Of a DNA stretch of 25,473 nucleotides, positions 2,054-25,473 are shown piece after piece. Numbering within the stretch: the stretch's first letter is position 1; every line of letters starts with the position of its first letter. Both the position numbers and the translations under genes were made by a program. The stretch is from a virus (lineage: Duplodnaviria > Caudoviricetes): positions 1 to 25,473 of the IMG/VR virus record IMGVR_UViG_3300044267_001940; one strand, given 5' to 3'. Below the pieces are notes generated by a model. That model did not search any database. It was not told the origin of the DNA and saw nothing but the letters and a program-made list of their open reading frames with translations.

Positions 2054-4441
2054 ATGATTTATACAACTAATAATAGTTCTTTTCCCGACCAGGTGGTACC
2101 TGACGCAGAGAAAGCTACCTTAGAATATGGTCTTGCCGTTGCTAGAGCGATTGAAGGTGAGTGGTTTAGAAACTACAGGTACGGAACTAATTACCCTGGT
2201 TATGCAGTAAATTATAATCAATATCATAACTTAAGATTATATGCTAGAGGAGAACAGTCAGTAAAAAAATATAAAGATGAGCTTGCTATTAATGGTGACT
2301 TAAGCTATTTAAATTTAGACTGGAAGCCAGTGCCAGTAATACCTAAGTTTGTAGACATTGTAGTTAATGGTATGTCACAAAGAAATTACGAAGTAAAGGC
2401 ATTTGCTGTTGATCCTTTTTCTACTAAGAAAAGAACTAACTATGCTAAAGAATTAATGAGAGATGTAAGAGAAAGGGAGTTAGCACAGAAAATTGAAGAA
2501 GTTACTGGTCAAAAACTTCAATCACCACAGTATAAAGAATTAGGTTTAGAAACAGAAGAAGAAATTAAATTACATTTACAGTTAGATTATAAACAGTCAG
2601 TTGAAATAGCTGAAGAAGAAGTTATTAATGACGTTTTAAATAGAAATAAATATGATTTAACTAGAAGAAGAATCGCACAAGATTTAACAGTATTAGGTAT
2701 TGCTTGTACAAAAACTAATTGGAATCAAGCAGAAGGTATTGTTGTTGATTATGTTGATCCAGCTGCTTTAGTATATTCATATACAGAAGACCCTAATTTT
2801 GAAGACTTATATTATGTTGGTGAAGTAAAGTCAATATCATTGGCTGATTTAAAAATGCAGTTTCCGTATTTAACAGATCAAGAGCTAGAAACAATACAGA
2901 AATATGATGGTAATGCTGAGTACTTAAGAGGTTATAATGGTAGAAATGATAATTTAACAGTACAGGTTTTATACTTTGAATATAAAACATATAGTGATCA
3001 AGTTTTTAAAATTAAAGAAACGCCCACTGGGTTAGAAAAAGCTTTAGAAAAGCCAGATACATTTAATCCACCTGAAAATGACAACTTTGAAAGAGTTTCT
3101 AGAACTATAGAAACGTTATACTCAGGTGCTAAAATATTGGGACATCCTTTAATGTTAAAGTGGGAACTGGCTAAAAACATGACAAGGCCATTTGCAGATA
3201 CCACCAGAGTTAAAATGAATTATAATATATGTGCGCCTCGTATGTATAAAGGACGTATTGAAAGTTTAGTTGGTAGAATAACAGGTTTTGCTGATATGAT
3301 ACAATTAACTCATTTAAAGCTACAACAAGTAATGTCTAGAATAGTTCCTGATGGTGTTTATTTAGATATGGATGGTTTAGCTGAAGTAGACTTAGGTAAT
3401 GGAACTAATTATAATCCAGCTGAAGCTTTAAATATGTATTTCCAAACTGGTAGTATAGTTGGTAGATCATTAACTCAAGATGGTGATCCTAACAGAGGAA
3501 AAGTTCCTATACAAGAATTACAGTCTAGCTCAGGAGGTGCTAAAATACAGTCTCTTATACAAACATATGAGTATTATTTAAAAATGATAAGAGATGTAAC
3601 CGGATTAAATGAAGCTAGAGATGGAAGTACTCCAGATAAAAATGCGTTAGTTGGTTTACAAAAGTTAGCTGCTGCAAACTCTAACACTGCTACTAGACAC
3701 TTACTACAAGCTATGTTATATATTACTTCTAGGACGTGTGAAAATATTTGTTTGAGAATATCAGATTCTTTAGAATATCCTTTTACAAAGTCAGCTTTAG
3801 AAAATAGTATATCAAGGTACAATGTTTCTACATTAGAAGAGATAACTAATTTAAACCTTCATGATTTTGGTATATTTTTAGACTTAGAACCAGATGAAGA
3901 AGAAAAGCAATACTTAGAGCAAAATATACAAATAGCTTTAAAAGGTGGTGCTATTGATTTAGAAGATGCTATTGATCTTAGAGAAATTAATAATATCAAG
4001 CTTGCTAATCAGATGCTTAAAGAAAGAAGAAAAAGAAAACAAAAGCGTGATCAGCGAATACAACAGCAGAACATGCAAGCTCAAGCTCAATCTAATGCAC
4101 AATTAGCAGAACAAACTGCGTTAGCTGAAACACAAAAGCAACAAGTATTAACTGAGCAAAAAATGCAACTAGCAAAAGCTCAAAGTGATTTTGAGATTTT
4201 ACAAATGCAACAAAAAGCTCAAATTGATCAGCAATTATTAGATCTTAGGTATTCTTATGATATGAAGCTAAAACAAATGGAAGTAGATTCTCAAGCTCAA
4301 AAAGAAAAAATGATTGAAGATAGAAAAGATCAAAGAACAAAATTAGAAGGTTCACAGCAAAGTGAGATGATCTCACAAAGGCAAATGGATGGACCGCCTA
4401 TAAATTTTGATGCTAAATACAGTGATTTATTATCACAATAA
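2054..4441 (+). CDS. Portal protein
   Basis: 795 aa directly after terL; WKPVPVIPKFVDIVVNG segment; long Gln-rich coiled-coil C-terminus resembling the P22-type portal barrel. Confidence 0.85.
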   Translation: MIYTTNNSSFPDQVVPDAEKATLEYGLAVARAIEGEWFRNYRYGTNYPGYAVNYNQYHNLRLYARGEQSVKKYKDELAINGDLSYLNLDWKPVPVIPKFVDIVVNGMSQRNYEVKAFAVDPFSTKKRTNYAKELMRDVRERELAQKIEEVTGQKLQSPQYKELGLETEEEIKLHLQLDYKQSVEIAEEEVINDVLNRNKYDLTRRRIAQDLTVLGIACTKTNWNQAEGIVVDYVDPAALVYSYTEDPNFEDLYYVGEVKSISLADLKMQFPYLTDQELETIQKYDGNAEYLRGYNGRNDNLTVQVLYFEYKTYSDQVFKIKETPTGLEKALEKPDTFNPPENDNFERVSRTIETLYSGAKILGHPLMLKWELAKNMTRPFADTTRVKMNYNICAPRMYKGRIESLVGRITGFADMIQLTHLKLQQVMSRIVPDGVYLDMDGLAEVDLGNGTNYNPAEALNMYFQTGSIVGRSLTQDGDPNRGKVPIQELQSSSGGAKIQSLIQTYEYYLKMIRDVTGLNEARDGSTPDKNALVGLQKLAAANSNTATRHLLQAMLYITSRTCENICLRISDSLEYPFTKSALENSISRYNVSTLEEITNLNLHDFGIFLDLEPDEEEKQYLEQNIQIALKGGAIDLEDAIDLREINNIKLANQMLKERRKRKQKRDQRIQQQNMQAQAQSNAQLAEQTALAETQKQQVLTEQKMQLAKAQSDFEILQMQQKAQIDQQLLDLRYSYDMKLKQMEVDSQAQKEKMIEDRKDQRTKLEGSQQSEMISQRQMDGPPINFDAKYSDLLSQ

Positions 4442-4453
4442 TTTTATATTAAC

Positions 4454-4470
4454 TATTATATTATATTATG
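4454..4470 (+). promoter_or_regulatory. (TATTA)3 repeat running into the scaffold start codon
   Basis: tattatattatattATG; the same motif precedes the gene at 7528. Confidence 0.45.
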
Positions 4471-5601
4471 TCAGAAATAAAAGAAGAAAAAAAAGAAGGT
4501 TTAAAAATAAAAAAGCCTTCTTATAAAAGACCTAATGATCAGGTCTTTAAAGTTGATTTAACTAAAAAAGAAGAAGATGCCGTTCAAGAGTCAAGCACAG
4601 AGGAAGTTCATGTACGCAACGAATCCGGAGATGGCGAAAAAGTGGGAGAAACACACGAAGAAAAAGTCGTTGCCACTGAGAGTAAAGAAGAAGAAGTAAG
4701 TCCAATAACGGAAGTACAAGAAGAAAAAGAAAAAGAAAAACAAGTTGAAGAAGTAAAAGCTGAAACTCCAGAGCTACCAGAAAATATAAATAAATTAATT
4801 GAATTTATGAAAGATACTGGTGGTAATATTGAAGATTATGTCAGGTTAAATACTGACTATTCTAAAGTAGATGCTGATGCTTTATTAGTAGAGTATTACA
4901 AGTCTACTAAACCTCATTTAAATAAAGAAGAAATAGAGTTTTTAATAGAAGACAGCTTTTCTTACGACGAAGATGAGGAAGATAAAAAAGATATTAAGAA
5001 AAAGCAGCTTGCTGCTAAAGAAGAGCTTGCGAAAGCAAGAAAGTTTTTTGAAGAAACAAAGCAAAAGTATTATGATGAAATCAAGTTGAAACCTAATACT
5101 AGCTCTGATCAACAAAAAGCCCTTGACTTTCTCAATACATACAACAAAGAACAAGAAATAGCTAAACAACGTCATGAGATGTTTCAGGAAAAAACAAAAG
5201 ATGTTTTCAATGATTTCAAAGGTTTTGATTTTAAATTTGGAGATAAAACTTTTAAATATAATGTAAACAACCCTGATGATGTTGCGGCAAAACAGTCTAA
5301 CTTAAACACATTCGTTAAGAAGTTCTTAAACAAAAATGGTGAAGTTGTTGACGCTGTTAACTACCACAAAGCTATTTATGCTGCTGATAATGCTGATGCT
5401 ATAGCTAAGCATTTTTATGAGCAAGGTAAGACCGACGCTACTAAAGATATTATGGCTAAATCTAAAAATATAACAAATGAAACTCGTCCACAAGACAATG
5501 GTGAAATTTATTTAAATGGATTAAAAGTGAGGGCAATTAGCGGTGCAGATAGTTCTAGGTTGAAATTTAAAGTAAAAAATAAAACAACAACTAAAACATA
5601 A
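4468..5601 (+). CDS. Capsid scaffolding protein (putative)
   Basis: 377 aa, very Glu/Lys-rich, acidic low-complexity N-terminus and helical C-terminus; lies between portal and capsid genes. Confidence 0.7.
   Translation: MSEIKEEKKEGLKIKKPSYKRPNDQVFKVDLTKKEEDAVQESSTEEVHVRNESGDGEKVGETHEEKVVATESKEEEVSPITEVQEEKEKEKQVEEVKAETPELPENINKLIEFMKDTGGNIEDYVRLNTDYSKVDADALLVEYYKSTKPHLNKEEIEFLIEDSFSYDEDEEDKKDIKKKQLAAKEELAKARKFFEETKQKYYDEIKLKPNTSSDQQKALDFLNTYNKEQEIAKQRHEMFQEKTKDVFNDFKGFDFKFGDKTFKYNVNNPDDVAAKQSNLNTFVKKFLNKNGEVVDAVNYHKAIYAADNADAIAKHFYEQGKTDATKDIMAKSKNITNETRPQDNGEIYLNGLKVRAISGADSSRLKFKVKNKTTTKT
4577..4699 (+). CDS. Overprinted 40-aa basic protein in the +1 frame of the scaffold gene
   Basis: ATG4577..TAA4699 = MPFKSQAQRKFMYATNPEMAKKWEKHTKKKSLPLRVKKKK; A-rich leader actaaaaaagaagaagATG; coincides with a GC-rich patch with atypical scaffold codons. 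Confidence 0.7.
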   Translation: MPFKSQAQRKFMYATNPEMAKKWEKHTKKKSLPLRVKKKK

Positions 5602-5604
5602 AAA

Positions 5605-7077
5605 ATGGGATTTGTAGGAAACAATTCTTTCCCTGCGTCGATAGTACCGATGCCTAGTAAAGTTACTGTACAAGATAATTACATTGACTTTCAGGCTGCT
5701 GGTTTCGAACAATGGGCACAACAATATCTACCTGAGCTTTATGAAGCTGAAGTAGAGAGATACGGAAACCGAACAATAGGCGGTTTCTTAAGAATGGTAG
5801 GCGCTGAAATGCCTATGACATCAGACCAAGTTATTTGGACTGAACAAAATAGATTACACATTGCGTATGACACTGTACAAGTTGCTGCTGGAGCTAATTC
5901 AACTGTGACTGTAACTATTACTCAAGGTGCTAATCCTGCTTCATCAGCTATTAGAAATGGTAATACAATTTTAATTTCAGATAATGCTACTGGATTAGTT
6001 ACTGCTAAAGCTTTAGTTACCGCTGGCGGTGGAACATACACACTAACTTGTATTCTTTATGAAACAACTGCAGCTGCTATTCCCGCTGGAATTGTTACAG
6101 GTGCTGCTACTAATAGCGTGTTTGTATATGGTTCTGAATTTCCAAAAGGAAGTCAGGGAATGTCTGGAGCAATTGAGCCAGGTGTAACTACTCATAAAAA
6201 TTCACCAATTATATTAAAAGATAACTATGAACTATCTGGTTCTGATGTTGCTCAAATTGGTTGGATTGAAGTAGCTACTGAAGATGGTCAATCAGGTTAT
6301 CTATGGTATTTAAAAGCTGAATCTGAAACAAGATTAAGATTTGAAGATTACCTAGAAACTGCAATGGTTGAAGGTGTAAGACAAGCTAACGTAAATGCTA
6401 ATACTCAGTTTGGTGCTCAATTTGGAGATGCTTCTGCTTCTCAAATAAAAGGTACTGAAGGTTTATTTTCGGCATTAAACGATAGAGGTAATGTATACTC
6501 TGGATTTGCTGGTGCTGCTGCTCCAGGATCTGGTGCTTTAGGTGATTTCGATGCTATTCTTAAGCAATTAGATAAGCAAGGTGCTATTGAAGAAAACATG
6601 TTATTCTTATCTAGAGCTACTGCTCTTGATTTTGACGATATGTTAGCTGCTGTAAATGGCTCTTATGCTTCTACTCAAGCTGCTTCTTATGGTTTATTTG
6701 AAAATGACGGTGATATGGCGTTGAATTTTGGATTTTCAGGTTTTAGAAGAGGTTCTTATGACTTCTACAAGACTGATTGGAAATACTTAAACGACATTAC
6801 TCTAAGAGGTTCTGATAACGAGATTGATGGTGTAATGATTCCTGCTGGAACTACTACAGTATACGATCAAATGTTAGGATCAAACATCAGACGTCCTTTC
6901 TTACATATAAGATATAGAGCTTCTGAAACTGAAGATAGAAAAATGAAATCATGGATCACTGGTTCTGTAGGTGGAGCTTTCACTTCAGATCTTGATACAA
7001 TGAGAGTTAATTTCTTATCTGAAAGATGTTTAGTCGTACAAGCTGCTAATAACTTCGTGTTATTTAAAGGAGCTTAA
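5605..7077 (+). CDS. Major capsid protein (HK97 fold expected)
   Basis: 490 aa after the scaffold; strongly biased codon usage (GCT/GGT/ACT); QQYLPELYEAEVERYG near the N-terminus and C-terminal FLSERCLVVQAANNFVLF. Confidence 0.85.
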   Translation: MGFVGNNSFPASIVPMPSKVTVQDNYIDFQAAGFEQWAQQYLPELYEAEVERYGNRTIGGFLRMVGAEMPMTSDQVIWTEQNRLHIAYDTVQVAAGANSTVTVTITQGANPASSAIRNGNTILISDNATGLVTAKALVTAGGGTYTLTCILYETTAAAIPAGIVTGAATNSVFVYGSEFPKGSQGMSGAIEPGVTTHKNSPIILKDNYELSGSDVAQIGWIEVATEDGQSGYLWYLKAESETRLRFEDYLETAMVEGVRQANVNANTQFGAQFGDASASQIKGTEGLFSALNDRGNVYSGFAGAAAPGSGALGDFDAILKQLDKQGAIEENMLFLSRATALDFDDMLAAVNGSYASTQAASYGLFENDGDMALNFGFSGFRRGSYDFYKTDWKYLNDITLRGSDNEIDGVMIPAGTTTVYDQMLGSNIRRPFLHIRYRASETEDRKMKSWITGSVGGAFTSDLDTMRVNFLSERCLVVQAANNFVLFKGA

Positions 7078-18809: not shown

Positions 18810-21800
18810 ATGAATTATAGATTTAACGGAACAGACTATACTGAAGATGAAATGACTCAAGTAGCTGATGTAAAAGGCTATACTTTAGAAGAATTAATTT
18901 CTAAAAATCCTAAAATAGAAACTATAACAGACGAAGAGGAAGATGAAGGAGTTAAAGTGGAAAAGCCGACACCTGTCGAGAGTGCCCCGACTGCGACAGA
19001 GATAAAAGGCAATGGGGTTTCCAAGCCGGAAAATACTTCATCGGTATTAGAAGAGAATAAAAAAGTTGAACCTATCAAAGTAGAAGAAAAGCCTAAAATT
19101 GAAAATGTAATATATCCTGAAGCAGATAATACAAAGGACATGAAAAAAGCTTTTAAAGACGAATATGGCGTTAAATATGAGAATATTCAAAAAGCTGTAG
19201 ATAGAGATGTATTAAAAGCAGAGCAAAATTTTCAAGCTGAATTAGATAAGTATTTTGTAGATGGTATTGATAAATATAAAAAAGTAAGTGAAGATGGTAC
19301 AGAATTATTAAATCTAAATGCTTTAGAACAAGACGCATATAATAAAGCTGTCACTAAATATAAAAATAATATAGATGCTATTAACAAAAAATATAGCAAA
19401 GAACGTTTAAATGATTATGTAAAGAGATATAACTCTTTTTTAGATGATGAATCTAAAAAACAAATAGACCAACTTTTAATAGATCAAGAAAAGTCTAAGC
19501 AAGATCTTATAGATTTTGAAGATAAAATATATTACAGATATGACAAAAGTGGTAAGCTGCTAGGAATACATAATTATGCTAGTATATATGATACGTACGT
19601 TGCGCCTGATAGACTTTCTTATGAAGAGTATGTAAAAATACCAGGAAACGAAAACAAGACAAAAAAAGAGTATAAAAATACATCTTACGCATTGCCTAAA
19701 TATGACAGCGTAGAAGATTACTTAGAGGATTACAACAAACATGGTAAAAGATCTGGATATATGCAAGAGGCTTCTACTAGTACTTTGTTAGACGAGTTTG
19801 AAATAGTAGTTCCTTCTAAAGAAACAGATACTGATAAACGTTTAGATTACTGGAAAAAGACTTTTTCTGGTCCTACAGAAGCTATATTTAACGATTTTGA
19901 TGATAATACTGTAGCTAGAATATTAAATAATTTATTACCAAAAAGTTTTGATGTTAATGCTTATGATCCTTTGCAAAATAGAATAGCAGTAACTAATACT
20001 AAAAATGACGAAGTAGAATACTTTGATGTTTTTGCTGATGGAAATAAAGCTAAAGCTAGATCTGAATCTATGCGACTAGCTAGTTGGTTAGCTGCTAATA
20101 CTATAAACGAAGAAGTAAAATTAACTGAAGATAATAAAAAATCACTTGACGATTACTTAACTAGCTTACAATCTAAACCTGCATACGATAACGAGGGTAA
20201 TCTTACTGGTGATGGTTTAAATGTAGATAATTTAAAAATACCTAAAACAAATAATTATTCTATAGGTCAAGTATCAGATTTAGAAAACTTTAGTGTAGAT
20301 TTATTTAAATTTGCTAATAAAACTACTCCAGCTTATATAGATGTACAGCCAGGTAGAAGATTTAGTTACGATGTTGCTGAAGATAATTTAGATGACTCTA
20401 GATATAGAAAGTCTCAACAAGCAGCTTTTAATACTTTTATACAAACACCAGGTTCAGACGGTAAATCTATAGGAATATCAGGCAAGATAAATTATTCTAC
20501 AATGCCTACTTACGAGCAAGATATACAAAGAGGAGGATTTGGCAGAAGTGATAAAAAACTAGATACCTATACTGAAATACCTAGCACATATGTCGGTGGT
20601 GAAATGGCTAGTCAAAAAGACAAAGACATAATAGAATACTCTAAACAAAACAAAGAAGCTTTATTTTATTATAATAAATCTAACGGTGAGAAAGTTTTAT
20701 TTGATACTAAAAAATGGAGTCAAGAAAATAACGGTAAAAACTTTACAGAATTTATAAGTAGAAAAGCTGTAAATGATGTATTAGTACCAGAAGAGTTAGT
20801 TGAAGAAGAAAAAATAGTTTTTGAAAAAGCTATTGGCATGGACTTTTTAGGAGACGCTGATTTAAACAAACAAGCTAAAATAATATTAGCTAGTTTAAAT
20901 GTTAAGCAAGATATTAAGAATAATATAACTTCTAATAAGTATGTTCAGAAAAAACTTGAAAATAAAATTCAAAACTTTAAAGGTTATAGTGTAGAAACTA
21001 CTCAAGCTATTTTAAATATTCCAGGTTATGAAGTAAAAATAAGACCTGGTGAAGATCTAGTAGAAGTGCCAACTAATTATGGTGAAAAAGTTATAGCTCC
21101 TAAAAGAATATTTGATAATGCTAAAGCAGAAATAACAGAGTTTACTGCTACTACTGAATTATATAAAAAAAATAACGCGTCTCAACTTAAGTTAATAGAT
21201 GACGCAGATAACGCTAATGATAAGTGGGAAATATACAAGTTAAATTATAGCGACACTGAAGCTAATCTGCAGAACTTTGTTTTATCTACTGCAGATTTTA
21301 TAAGTTCATCTCTCTATGGTGGTTATAAATACTTAACGCCCTACGGTTGGGCTATGAGTGCTTTGTCTGCTGGTGCTAACGTAAAAGATCCTTTAACAGA
21401 AGTTATGCTAGGATTTAAAGAGTATCAAGAAAAGCAAAGGTCTTATTATGTTGCTCCACCTAAATTTGGTGAGTTTAGAACAGCTGCTGATTTTGGTAGT
21501 TGGTTTTTCAATATGGCAGGAACACAGATACCTCAATATGCTACAATGTTATTTAGTGGAGGTAGCGCAAGTATACCATTGTTAATAATGGGTTCTTCAG
21601 CTGCAGGGTCTACTGACTTAGACTTTAGAAGAGAAGTTATAGCAGGTAATAAAGATTATAATGAGTTTGGTATATTGTGGAGATCCGCTTTATCAGGAGG
21701 ATCTGAAGCTTTATTTGCCGGTTTACCTACGTGGAAAATAATGAACAAAGGTAAAAGTTTAGTGTCTGGTTTAGGTGGCAATGCTACGTCACAGTTTTTC

Positions 21801-24800
21801 AAAGGTGGTAGAGATTATTTAAGAGCACAAGTACCTGGCATAATAAAAGATGTAACTTTAGATTCAGGATTTGAAGTTATTAATGGTGTTGTACAAAATG
21901 TTTTAGCTGAAAGACCTTTGACAGAAGGATTAGGAGAAATAGCAGCTACTAGTATACTAATGACTGGTCCTGTGTCTGTTCTTTCTCCAACTTATTATGC
22001 TTTGACTACTAAAGATTTTATTGGTGGAAATATAAAACAAAGAATAAATGAGAATACTTATAAGATAAGTGAAATAGAAAATCAAAATAAAATTTATTCT
22101 AAAAGTATACAAAAATTCATGGATGCTGCTACTAGATTAGCAGGCACTAGCGATGGTAGATATGCAAGACAAAAAGTACAAGAGTTAAAAACTAAATTAT
22201 TAGAAAATCTAAATATAAAAATGGAGTTGCAAACAGAAGTAACATCTGACTACAACTCTTTAGATAACACATTTAAAAATAAAGGTGTTAACCCTGCTGG
22301 ATCTGCGAATTATAATTTTATGCTAAGTAAATTGATTGAATTAAAAAATCAAGCTAAGCAAGTAAATCAAAATAATAATTTAACAGATAGCCAAAAGTCA
22401 AAACAACTTGATGATATTAATGCTCAATACGTTAGAATAGATCAAGCCAAAGAAAAGTATTTAGATCCTAAGACATATGGTGATGCTTGGCACGCGCTTA
22501 AAGGAGCTGGAGTTTTTAATTTTGCAGCTAAAAAACAGTATAAAGAATATGTAAATAAAGCTACTGAAAATCTACTTGAGTCTGGAGTAACTAATGAAAA
22601 CTTAACTACAGAAAAAGTAGAACAAGAAGCTAGAAAATTATATCACGAAAAAATAGCAGAAGATCAAATAGTTAAGGATCAAAAAGTAAACCCAAATTTA
22701 AGAGTCGCAAGAACACTTGAAGAAGCTAAAGATATAATAAACAAAAGCACTACATTAGGCGAAGAACAAAAGAAAAACTTAATAAGCAAGCTTGAAAAAG
22801 GAACTCAAAACGGATTCAGTATAGATGAATTTGAGTTTGCTTATACGCCTAACATGGTTAAAAATAGTATGTTTCATACAGGAGGTCATGAAACATCTCA
22901 TAGATCTTCTTCAATTTTAATTAGTAAAAATCCACAAGCTTTTAAAGGTTTTGCAGATCAATTAGTTTCTTTTATGGAAGCTGACCATGCTGAACTTTTA
23001 GAGTATGCTAAACAAGTAAATGGTAATTTATTTAAAGACGGTAAGTACGACTCTGAAGAAGTAATAGCTACGTTTATAGAATTAGTAGGAGCTGGTAAAA
23101 TAAAAATGAATAAGAACGGTAATATGCCTGCATTATTAGGGTTTTTATTTAATAAAAGCCTAAATAATGCTAGTGAAGGAGAGTATAACATACCTTTTAA
23201 TGGTCAAGATGATATTGTAAACTGGTTTATTGGTCTTGGAAAAGGTTTGACTGACGGCAGCGTGACAATAGGTCAATATACAGAATTATTAGCCGGTGCT
23301 TTAGACATAGATTTAGAAACTGGCAAAGTAGTTAAAATGACGCCTGAACAAACTTCTAAATTAGCGGCTAGTGAAGTAGAGATAAGTGATTCTGAAACTA
23401 CACTGTTAGATGCTATAAATAATTTATTACCTAAAGACATAGATACTAAAGAAAAGTATGATGACTTCATAAGAGATGAGAGAAAAGCTAAACCAATTGT
23501 AGACGCGTTAAATAAACCAGGTGGTGCTATAAATAACTATATAAGATCTAAACAAGTTAGTCCAGAAGAGGGTAACGAAATGATACAAAATACATTGTTT
23601 AGATTATTTAATTTTAATCCTGAAGAAACTAGAGCAGATGGCAGTGTTGTAGGTCCTGAAAGTTTTGGCGAAAGAATATTTGCTGATACTAGATTTGCTT
23701 CATTAGATGCTAGAAAAAAGTTAGCTAAAGAAGCAGAAAAGAAAAAGCAAGAGGCTAGAATTGACGATGAAGAAGCTAGACAAGTAGCTGCTCGTGACGA
23801 TTCTGAACCTACTGAAACAGCTAAAGATAGAGTTACTCCTAAATCTAAGATACCAAAAGAGTTTCCAGAAGTATTTGATCAAGACATTAAAGATGAATTT
23901 GAAACAGCTGGATTAGAAATATATGAAAGTGATCTTCCAGATATGTCTAAAAAAGAATTTAAAGCTGCTGTTCTTGATATTTTTAAAGGTAAATTAGGTA
24001 AAAAAGTAAAAGACAAGTTAGGTACTCGTAAAAATTACGAGTTTGTAGTCAAAAAAATGGCTCCTAAAATGAAAGATCTTTTACCTGTACAGTGGTTTGT
24101 TAGATTAGAAGCTCAAACAAAACCTGAAGATAGACTTTTTACTAATCCTCCAAAGCGTCTAACTAAGAAAGCAGATATAGATAAAGCTTTGTTAGATGAA
24201 AAAGTTTACGTAGAAAACTTAAAACAAGGAGTTAATATTTATGAATTTAAAGACTTTAAAGCTAAACAATTATCAGATTATTTATTAGCACCAGCTATAA
24301 ATCCTATCACTGGAGAAAAAAGTGGTCTTAGAGGTACTAGAAAAACTGCTTTAGTTGAAGGTATAACAGAAAAATTAGGTAGAGATGTTTCACCTTCTAC
24401 AGCTAAAGCTTCTGGTAGAACAACTAGAGAGATAGCTGAAATAAGTAAAAAGCTACAAGTAGATCCTAGAATTAAGTTTAGTGCTAGTTATATAAGCAAT
24501 TTTTTAAAAGAAATTAATGTAGATTATTTAAGAGGTTACAATAGTAAAGGTGATGTGAATAAAAAAGATGTTAAAAGATTTAAAGAAGTATTATTAAAGT
24601 TCTATCCTTTTAGTACTTCAACTATAAACTCTGGAACTTTTGCTAATATAAGTAGTGGAAAAGCAAAAGGTCAAAATTTTAATGATATTGATAGGTTAAG
24701 TATGCAATTGCTTTTAAATTTTGGCGAACAAGGAGACGTAGACAATATATATATACCTACTAAAAACGCTGAAGAAATATCTATTATTTCTAAAAAGTAT

Positions 24801-25473
24801 AATGGAGAAGTAGATGGTGCTGTAGTTAAAATAAATATAAATAAATTAAACAAAGACCAGCTTCAAGAATTATTAAAAAAATATTTAAAAAGATCTACTA
24901 AAGAGTTTTCGCTAAGTGAAGACAAGATGAATAGTGTTGCTGACACTTTTAAATCTTTAAGTTCTGCTTGGTTAAATTTAAATAAAAATATTAAAAACTT
25001 TCACAATGATTCTAAATATATAAAAGAAAGAAAAAGTAATTATGATGGTTTAGGTTTTATAATAGAAGAGTTTGACAGAGTGTATACTGAAGCTAAAGGA
25101 GAGGATAAGAAGCTAGTGTTACAAATGCTAGCTGGTATATTCTCCACGGCAAGTGCCAATAGCTCTCACATGTTTAGAATGGCTGCGTTTCCTAGTGGTT
25201 ATACTTCTACTTATTTAGATGGATCTGGAACTAGAAAAGAGCACGTAATACCTCAAGCAGATTTAGCAGATTTTGTGTTTACTGTTATATCTGATCCTTC
25301 TTTAAATACTAATTTAGCTATAGAATTAATAAAAGATAATTTTTTACAACTATATATAAGTGAAAATCAAGATAATATGCTTAAAGATCCTGGTTTTCAA
25401 AGTAAAATGCCTGAAGGTTATTGGGAGAGCTGGTACGATGCTATAAGAACTGGCGATTTATCTAAAGCTTTCC
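18810..25473 (+). CDS. Giant internal virion / ejection polyvalent protein, >2221 aa, 3'-truncated
   Basis: ATG at 18810 (TAA-T-ATG junction). Read codon by codon with no stop to the window end (MNYRFNGTDYTEDEMTQVADVKG...). Gly/Ala hydrophobic region about 21270-22010, HETSH at 22887-22901, EHVIP at 25239-25253. Confidence 0.88.
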   Translation, partial: MNYRFNGTDYTEDEMTQVADVKGYTLEELISKNPKIETITDEEEDEGVKVEKPTPVESAPTATEIKGNGVSKPENTSSVLEENKKVEPIKVEEKPKIENVIYPEADNTKDMKKAFKDEYGVKYENIQKAVDRDVLKAEQNFQAELDKYFVDGIDKYKKVSEDGTELLNLNALEQDAYNKAVTKYKNNIDAINKKYSKERLNDYVKRYNSFLDDESKKQIDQLLIDQEKSKQDLIDFEDKIYYRYDKSGKLLGIHNYASIYDTYVAPDRLSYEEYVKIPGNENKTKKEYKNTSYALPKYDSVEDYLEDYNKHGKRSGYMQEASTSTLLDEFEIVVPSKETDTDKRLDYWKKTFSGPTEAIFNDFDDNTVARILNNLLPKSFDVNAYDPLQNRIAVTNTKNDEVEYFDVFADGNKAKARSESMRLASWLAANTINEEVKLTEDNKKSLDDYLTSLQSKPAYDNEGNLTGDGLNVDNLKIPKTNNYSIGQVSDLENFSVDLFKFANKTTPAYIDVQPGRRFSYDVAEDNLDDSRYRKSQQAAFNTFIQTPGSDGKSIGISGKINYSTMPTYEQDIQRGGFGRSDKKLDTYTEIPSTYVGGEMASQKDKDIIEYSKQNKEALFYYNKSNGEKVLFDTKKWSQENNGKNFTEFISRKAVNDVLVPEELVEEEKIVFEKAIGMDFLGDADLNKQAKIILASLNVKQDIKNNITSNKYVQKKLENKIQNFKGYSVETTQAILNIPGYEVKIRPGEDLVEVPTNYGEKVIAPKRIFDNAKAEITEFTATTELYKKNNASQLKLIDDADNANDKWEIYKLNYSDTEANLQNFVLSTADFISSSLYGGYKYLTPYGWAMSALSAGANVKDPLTEVMLGFKEYQEKQRSYYVAPPKFGEFRTAADFGSWFFNMAGTQIPQYATMLFSGGSASIPLLIMGSSAAGSTDLDFRREVIAGNKDYNEFGILWRSALSGGSEALFAGLPTWKIMNKGKSLVSGLGGNATSQFFKGGRDYLRAQVPGIIKDVTLDSGFEVINGVVQNVLAERPLTEGLGEIAATSILMTGPVSVLSPTYYALTTKDFIGGNIKQRINENTYKISEIENQNKIYSKSIQKFMDAATRLAGTSDGRYARQKVQELKTKLLENLNIKMELQTEVTSDYNSLDNTFKNKGVNPAGSANYNFMLSKLIELKNQAKQVNQNNNLTDSQKSKQLDDINAQYVRIDQAKEKYLDPKTYGDAWHALKGAGVFNFAAKKQYKEYVNKATENLLESGVTNENLTTEKVEQEARKLYHEKIAEDQIVKDQKVNPNLRVARTLEEAKDIINKSTTLGEEQKKNLISKLEKGTQNGFSIDEFEFAYTPNMVKNSMFHTGGHETSHRSSSILISKNPQAFKGFADQLVSFMEADHAELLEYAKQVNGNLFKDGKYDSEEVIATFIELVGAGKIKMNKNGNMPALLGFLFNKSLNNASEGEYNIPFNGQDDIVNWFIGLGKGLTDGSVTIGQYTELLAGALDIDLETGKVVKMTPEQTSKLAASEVEISDSETTLLDAINNLLPKDIDTKEKYDDFIRDERKAKPIVDALNKPGGAINNYIRSKQVSPEEGNEMIQNTLFRLFNFNPEETRADGSVVGPESFGERIFADTRFASLDARKKLAKEAEKKKQEARIDDEEARQVAARDDSEPTETAKDRVTPKSKIPKEFPEVFDQDIKDEFETAGLEIYESDLPDMSKKEFKAAVLDIFKGKLGKKVKDKLGTRKNYEFVVKKMAPKMKDLLPVQWFVRLEAQTKPEDRLFTNPPKRLTKKADIDKALLDEKVYVENLKQGVNIYEFKDFKAKQLSDYLLAPAINPITGEKSGLRGTRKTALVEGITEKLGRDVSPSTAKASGRTTREIAEISKKLQVDPRIKFSASYISNFLKEINVDYLRGYNSKGDVNKKDVKRFKEVLLKFYPFSTSTINSGTFANISSGKAKGQNFNDIDRLSMQLLLNFGEQGDVDNIYIPTKNAEEISIISKKYNGEVDGAVVKININKLNKDQLQELLKKYLKRSTKEFSLSEDKMNSVADTFKSLSSAWLNLNKNIKNFHNDSKYIKERKSNYDGLGFIIEEFDRVYTEAKGEDKKLVLQMLAGIFSTASANSSHMFRMAAFPSGYTSTYLDGSGTRKEHVIPQADLADFVFTVISDPSLNTNLAIELIKDNFLQLYISENQDNMLKDPGFQSKMPEGYWESWYDAIRTGDLSKAF
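18959..19018 (+). other. Putative programmed -1 ribosomal frameshift signal (slippery site plus H-type pseudoknot)
   Basis: G_GAA_AAG at 18959-18965; 7-nt spacer; stem 1 CTGTCG(18973-78)/CGACAG(18994-99); stem 2 GCCCC(18984-88)/GGGGT(19014-18); A-rich connecting loop. Confidence 0.6.

Follow-up and report, generated by a model that had tools for sequence, protein, structure and literature searches.

Within the putative head scaffold gene of a marine phage we found a second, complete gene in the +1 frame (4577–4699, + strand), which encodes a basic peptide of 40 aa and is almost certainly real. Selection preserves this nested frame, whereas the overlying scaffold residues are merely kept open and acidic. 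The peptide gene is very probably the older of the two frames. The explanation that we favor as a whole, i.e., that a real, selected, and older gene was captured by the scaffold linker, is translated from its own start, and functions inside the phage head, has slightly better than even chances.

The window (the whole stretch of DNA analyzed here, 25,473 bases) is an entire virus record that is 42% complete, in which the terminase gene, the portal gene, a 377-aa ORF, a gene for a virion protein of 490 aa, and the tail genes follow one another. The 377-aa ORF (4468–5601, +), which hosts the nested gene, lies between the portal gene on its 5' side (2054–4441, +; phrog_6547, E = 2e-141) and a virion structural protein gene (5605–7077, +; phrog_13704, E = 5e-95) whose product is likely the major capsid protein based on position and size. 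Family and structure-database sequence searches with the 377-aa protein returned no known scaffold family and no PDB match. Its nearest cultured relatives are ‘structural proteins’ encoded at the equivalent position in Flavobacterium elemo podophages, so the host group of the phage is presumably Bacteroidota. Given the position of the gene between those for portal and capsid, the net charge of its product (−13), and an AF2 model with a helical core behind 99 low-confidence residues, we infer that it encodes a head scaffold with a disordered linker, which seems a fair label. The linker (residues 1–99; 4468–4764, +; pLDDT <50) is acidic and predicted to be disordered, and it houses the nested gene. 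Over the terminase gene, a long +1 frame of 176 codons (105–635, +) is open and host GC3 is raised (0.41 over part of it); this frame is largely open in four of five relatives and broken in one, and may be a shadow of the conserved gene.

Conservation and selection in the two reading frames

The earlier note on this DNA had described a 40-aa +1 ORF with A at −3, lying in a GC-rich patch and encoding a basic peptide within an acidic one. The coordinates and translation match exactly, and the ORF has its own start and stop and lies wholly inside the host ORF in a different frame. The GC content of the patch is 0.45 compared with 0.30 for the remainder of the host gene, and the net charge is +12 for the peptide and −10 for the overlying host residues. 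For the window alone, given the scaffold residues and the codon usage of the core, the +1 frame would be open with a probability of 0.19, and open with an ATG with a probability of 0.14. An open +1 frame in this single sequence is thus unremarkable, and it is conservation that lifts the nested ORF above chance. The scaffold core holds another Lys-rich +1 ORF with an ATG (4973–5089, +; 38 aa, without Trp or Pro), which is likely a shadow because its start and end positions differ between relatives, and which provides a useful contrast to the nested gene. The value of 0.14 and the presence of this other ORF both fit the reading that the nested ORF is likewise no gene but a shadow of the acidic linker, with Glu codons read as Lys. 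We consider this reading to have a negligible chance of being right: it is already refuted by 30 close called-gene homologues of the peptide (to E = 2e-11), by the codon-conservation counts, and by the selection on the nested frame, given below.

Conservation was evaluated in the best 80 of at least 547 confirmed scaffold-homologue loci. A Met-Pro-Phe/Leu ORF was present in the +1 frame at the equivalent site in 62 of these 80 loci (63 of 81 including the window); as the loci are redundant and related, such counts are not independent. The host codon beneath the nested ATG was GAT or AAT in all 59 distinct copies (window included) and never the synonymous GAC or AAC, and the next host codon was GCC in 59 of 59, against a background of 9%. 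By chance, 7.6 of the 59 copies would be open in +1 and 5.4 would be open with an ATG. Further evidence against a shadow comes from the 18 scaffold loci without the nested gene, where the +1 frame carries 9–16 stops, and from one locus with a visibly decayed copy (L028:2968–3350). There, the linker is kept in the scaffold frame while the +1 frame lacks the ATG and contains stops; the locus L056, with which it was compared, is intact.

To compare selection on the two frames, 83 nested copies supplied 22 disjoint pairs with equal ORF length and 2–25% difference. At scaffold codon positions 1/2/3, these pairs differed 155/51/43 times over 887 codons, most often at the wobble position of the peptide, the reverse of the pattern in the scaffold core (0.086/0.048/0.213). 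The overlap-controlled pN/pS was 0.19 for the peptide (Fisher p ~1e-37, with sites taken as independent) and 0.99 for the scaffold. Between the window and its homologue L001, the differences were 9/1/1, with the peptide 97% identical and the scaffold 76%. The scaffold frame was nonetheless open across the overlap in all 59 copies, against 0.18 expected given the peptides. Among 42 distinct non-nested copies, the same host-type frame was open in just five, each at a locus with a GC content of 0.56–0.66. The homologue search and the frame-specific selection analysis that the earlier note had proposed as checks both came out in favor of the gene. Its suggestion of a real gene placed in a tolerant, disordered, and acidic region is supported.

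Distribution of the peptide family and origin of the nesting

The nested peptide belongs to a family of 4,657 clusters or representatives (E ≤ 1e-3), a very large and as yet uncharacterised module that tailed phages carry at protein N-termini. Met1, Pro2, and Gln8 are invariant across 58 aligned members, partly reflecting how the members were selected. The family weakly resembles phrog_1375, whose profile matched 29 of the 58 members (E ≤ 0.05, best 3.7e-7) but the window peptide only at E = 0.041. No credible match was found in Pfam, NCBIfam, or PDB sequences, the PDB matches being designed repeat propellers. DUF3008/PF11450 was the nearest named cluster in the ESM Atlas (score 0.85), yet none of the 58 members matched it in Pfam and it is a distant lead only. 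Neither phrog_1375 nor DUF3008 has an assigned function.

Standalone copies occur in Synechococcus phage S-CBS2, phage C75C1, Streptomyces phages, and 023Pt_psg01, and that of Streptomyces phage Vorvolakos (gp48) has an Ala/Lys-rich tail. Annotation overlooks the gene even in this form: the copies in S-CBS2 (L082:3501) and C75C1 (L084:3501) are intact intergenic genes of 36 and 34 aa that were left unannotated. A family match in the public record of P-RSP2 (L265:4001) also lies, unannotated, between annotated genes. Among the matches listed, 117 of 120 and 139 of 150 have the module starting at their first residue, and the 74 long proteins that carry it at their N-terminus represent 62 unrelated groups. 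Peptides of phages with unrelated capsids and hosts are 70% identical. Among 80 peptide-centred viral loci, the gene was nested in the scaffold in 23, nested in +1 in ORFs of 1,260–1,700+ codons in 13, and neither in 44. The neighborhoods of 40 non-nested loci were scanned using hand-picked neighbors (96 proteins, 2.5 kb reach). A portal, terminase, scaffold, capsid, or head-tail gene was found within 2.5 kb in 16, a raw figure that late genes in general might match; the other loci had tail fibres (n = 2), a giant gene (n = 1), only non-structural genes (n = 7), or no named neighbor (n = 14). Standalone homologues, which the earlier note had suggested, exist and often lie in head modules. In two unrelated phages (L090 and L123) the gene order is portal, peptide, (scaffold), capsid.

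The giant genes represent a second type of host. The ten that were scanned encode phrog_32588 proteins and their relatives, one DarB-like protein, and three proteins without a match; at another locus (L093), a standalone peptide gene lies directly behind a phrog_32588 gene. A cultured example is Flavobacterium phage elemoF 6-3D, in which the peptide gene (MT497071.1:52379–52507) is unannotated and lies in +1 within the gene for a 3,694-aa structural protein; the scaffold gene of this phage lacks it. The same holds for ctfjg026 (MW202828.1:9590–9724, in +1 within a giant structural gene). In total, 68 elemo records matched under a ‘structural protein’, with the frame checked in one. Ten positive records searched whole had one match each, and in three complete records the scaffold family was present and the nested gene was found only in the giant gene. 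In the window, the positional counterpart is an ORF of 2221+ aa that runs off the end (18810–25473, +); judged by where it lies, it likely encodes an internal or ejection protein. Neither PHROG nor Pfam matched it, and the part present contains no nested copy. The elemo peptide is 92% identical to a scaffold-nested one (L038) and only 58% to the best standalone copy compared, which suggests that the nested gene may have hopped between giant and scaffold genes. Independent captures by the two would also be compatible with these sequences, given that a 169-aa protein (P0275) bears the elemo/L038 subtype as its tag. In a same-codon test for such hopping, giant and scaffold copies shared more codons (0.53) than standalone and scaffold copies (0.39), which is only suggestive because shared constraints confound it.

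The earlier note had called the peptide gene ‘overprinted’, i.e., born inside the scaffold gene, and this part of it was not supported. The peptide frame is far more widely distributed and bears the amino-acid constraint, and the overlying scaffold residues are thus the new frame. Under the distribution criterion given in PMC8227390, a frame that arose de novo is narrower in spread than that of its host; here the nested frame is neither narrower nor yielding (0.19 vs 0.99), and by this criterion it is the ancestral one. The gene might still have arisen by overprinting in the scaffold gene and spread later in standalone and fused forms, as internal de novo genes usually lie in the +1 frame (PMC8227390) and nesting is common in the scaffold clade (63/81). 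We regard this origin as improbable: the peptide far outspreads the scaffold family, whose distant members lack it, it is also nested in unrelated giant genes, and the constraint lies on the peptide rather than the scaffold, opposite to the pN/pS above 2.5 given for phiX174 B, E, and K in PMC9865509.

Since the small gene stands alone in other phages and is nested in another gene in relatives, the scaffold gene has probably taken it up. Comparison of codon usage indicated how this could occur. At third codon positions, nested copies have G at 0.52 and T at 0.05, and standalone copies 0.35 and 0.20; Glu makes up 20% of the host frame over nested copies vs 7% for standalone ones. A Lys-rich gene read one base back would give Glu, Gln, and Val, and tuning of third positions alone (T down, G up) would strip the stops and yield an acidic linker. 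All 47 standalone peptides could be opened in the host frame by synonymous changes alone. As wobble tuning suffices, a host gene could cheaply extend over the small gene or accept it in frame, and a 5' extension of the scaffold gene across an order like that in L090 and L123 would give the nesting seen here. In three GC-rich phages (L135:2320–4353, L102, and L125), the gene that follows the peptide gene (terminase in L135) has an open frame that reaches upstream across it, possibly an early stage of capture or chance.

The nested gene also turns over among related scaffolds. In a quick tree of scaffold cores (74 distinct sequences), absence of the gene and five subtypes defined by motifs were scattered, with 25 changes, and absence alone required at least four changes on well-supported branches. 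A test rejected the monophyly of a subtype that had been defined ahead of inspecting the tree (p-AU 1e-105), and two scaffold cores that are 97% identical (L067 and L073) carry different nested subtypes. The gene was absent from 18 of 81 scaffolds, and 10 of 10 such contigs searched whole (18–66% complete) had no copy elsewhere. Scattered absence, subtype swaps, decay, and the lack of a replacement copy in these contigs together suggest that the nested gene is accessory, not essential.

A second +1 gene of 39 aa, conserved and basic, with Trp and a Pro-His-x-Asn-Lys3 motif, lies further down the linker in 16 of 81 scaffolds (L067:1395–1511, L004:3197–3313, and 14 more loci) and is absent from the window. 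Its differences at its own codon positions number 16/19/57 over seven pairs, mainly at the third. It was nested in 78 of 80 loci, 76 of which have the Met-Pro-Phe gene upstream, and standalone in two (near L251:2001 and L253:2001). A weak similarity to DUF7230 (9 of 15 members, best E = 5e-4) was below the cutoff. These patterns lead us to propose, tentatively and as a view that may well prove wrong, a portable dual-coding cassette. An ancient, phage-wide gene for a head-loading tag, its wobble positions tuned to read as an acidic linker, would hop in frame between unrelated virion genes (scaffold and giant internal protein) and swap alleles, and disordered linkers would turn into hidden arrays with none, one, or two stowaways.

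Expression and predicted function of the peptide

The region ahead of the nested start (4557–4576, +) is A-rich, lacks a Shine-Dalgarno sequence, and probably serves for initiation, and its Lys/Glu codons are read in the scaffold frame. In Bacteroidota, initiation proceeds without Shine-Dalgarno sequences and is helped by A at −3, −6, −12, and −13 and by low structure (PMC6847099), and the window start has A at all four positions. Across 76 nested starts, A occurs at −3 in 0.84, compared with 0.33 of 1,320 other +1 ATGs, and at −12/−13 in 0.89/0.83 compared with 0.57 and 0.29. The folding energy of the start region is −2.2 for nested starts vs −7.1 for the others. The Lys/Glu codons of the linker account for part of the A-richness. 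The nested gene is likely translated from its own start on late mRNA, where the ATG at 4577 would be used for internal initiation by the mechanism of Bacteroidota. A promoter and terminator scan of 4300–5000 gave four promoter-like sites where 2.1 were expected, with no link between any of them and the nested gene, and a single 252-nt contig among RNA-run contigs spans 4448–4702, indicating presence in an RNA library rather than expression. The A-rich run could instead favor a ribosomal frameshift into +1, which would fuse the first ~36 scaffold residues to the basic peptide and leave no free peptide. This is very unlikely, since the ATG is invariant in 59 of 59 copies though GAC/AAC would be silent for the scaffold, almost every other form begins with the module at residue 1, and the adenines at −3, −12, and −13 are of the initiation type.

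The AF2 model of the peptide (pLDDT 83.6) has helices at residues 6–15 and 17–24 followed by a basic tail. A fold search with this model retrieved nothing in PDB and only uncharacterised homologues in BFVD, and a predicted complex of the peptide with the capsid protein scored 0.00, which carries no weight either way. By analogy to the capsid-targeting sequences of T4, the peptide may be a small two-helix anchor that ends up inside the phage head, with a basic tail in contact with DNA, a function to which we give a little more than even odds. The first ~25–36 residues would then act as a head-loading tag, which fused forms would employ to load cargo and to which standalone and nested forms would add only the basic tail touching packaged DNA. 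A motif after the module, considered as a possible prohead-protease site, occurs in 57 of 73 long carriers vs 207 of 887, although it was picked post hoc and its count is inflated by the Lys-rich tail. The 7 of 40 non-nested loci whose annotated neighbors are all non-structural, along with the 14 without annotated neighbors, were counted against head loading.

A capsid partner explains the 70% identity between phages with unrelated capsids and hosts no better than a conserved partner in the host or a nucleic acid would. The product of a real gene might act unpackaged in the infected cell, as a basic protein made late that binds a conserved target of the host such as nucleoid DNA, the ribosome, or a defence protein. 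We consider this possible, at rather more than one chance in a handful but well short of probable. The main argument for it (or for a DNA partner) is that the peptide stays highly identical between phages that infect Actinobacteria, Cyanobacteria, and Bacteroidota. Scaffolds that are nearly identical have swapped divergent subtypes, as conflict with the host predicts, the gene is dispensable, and some standalone copies adjoin nucleases, a ligase, or a ribonucleotide reductase. Set against this, every gene that hosts a nested copy belongs to the structural module, head modules house 16 of the 40 non-nested loci, a tag strictly at residue 1 of 62 unrelated carrier groups suits an address label better than an effector, and neither nested family matched ArfA in Pfam or NCBIfam.

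Comparison with known systems

Nested genes are a known kind, e.g., lambda Rz1 lies inside Rz and phiX174 E inside the scaffold gene, and they are usually explained as new frames arising in old genes. An embedded o-spanin such as Rz1 has a lipoprotein signal with Cys; the peptide has neither a cysteine nor a hydrophobic stretch, and it is therefore not a spanin or lysis protein. The likeness to phiX174 B, E, and K is that a complete out-of-frame gene lies in a morphogenesis gene and is missed by annotation. In those genes the nested frame is new and yielding, with a pN/pS above 2.5 (PMC9865509, PMC8227390), whereas here the nested gene is the older and constrained one, the host yields, and at least two unrelated host genes are involved.

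Among proteins of phage heads, the capsid-targeting sequence of T4 is a short, strictly N-terminal module of 10–19 residues on divergent cargo, and the internal proteins IPI–III are small, basic, dispensable, and variable between related phages (PMC9026906). The nested family is likewise an N-terminal module on unrelated cargo and is small, basic, dispensable, and variable. It differs in that its module has 25–36 residues and is predicted to be folded, occurs also standalone with only a basic tail, and spans unrelated phage groups; the likeness was drawn from descriptions of the T4 proteins, and the peptide had no PDB sequence match. The DNA-binding protein J of phiX174 (PMC9865509) resembles the peptide in having ~40 residues with a basic tract and an aromatic part and in being encoded among head genes. 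J runs from a basic N-terminus to a hydrophobic/aromatic C-terminus, and the peptide has the opposite polarity, with its aromatic core first and basic tail last, and belongs to a dsDNA tailed phage; no homology between the two was found. The peptide would at most work like a capsid-targeting sequence or a J-type protein, and we class it as neither.

A literature search that covered few subscription papers found no account of the peptide family or its nesting, and none in which an older gene was captured repeatedly, with swapped and decayed copies and a second passenger. Within the literature searched, what appears new is not nesting itself but the probable capture of an older gene, repeated across unrelated hosts. 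The Flavobacterium elemo phages (68 records) offer a cultured system in which the nested start codon could be abolished without altering the host protein. Natural examples of the gene as present, swapped, or decayed are available for comparison. Relative to the usual order of events in nested genes, the order here is reversed and repeated, with two or more unrelated genes having likely absorbed an existing gene into their disordered regions.
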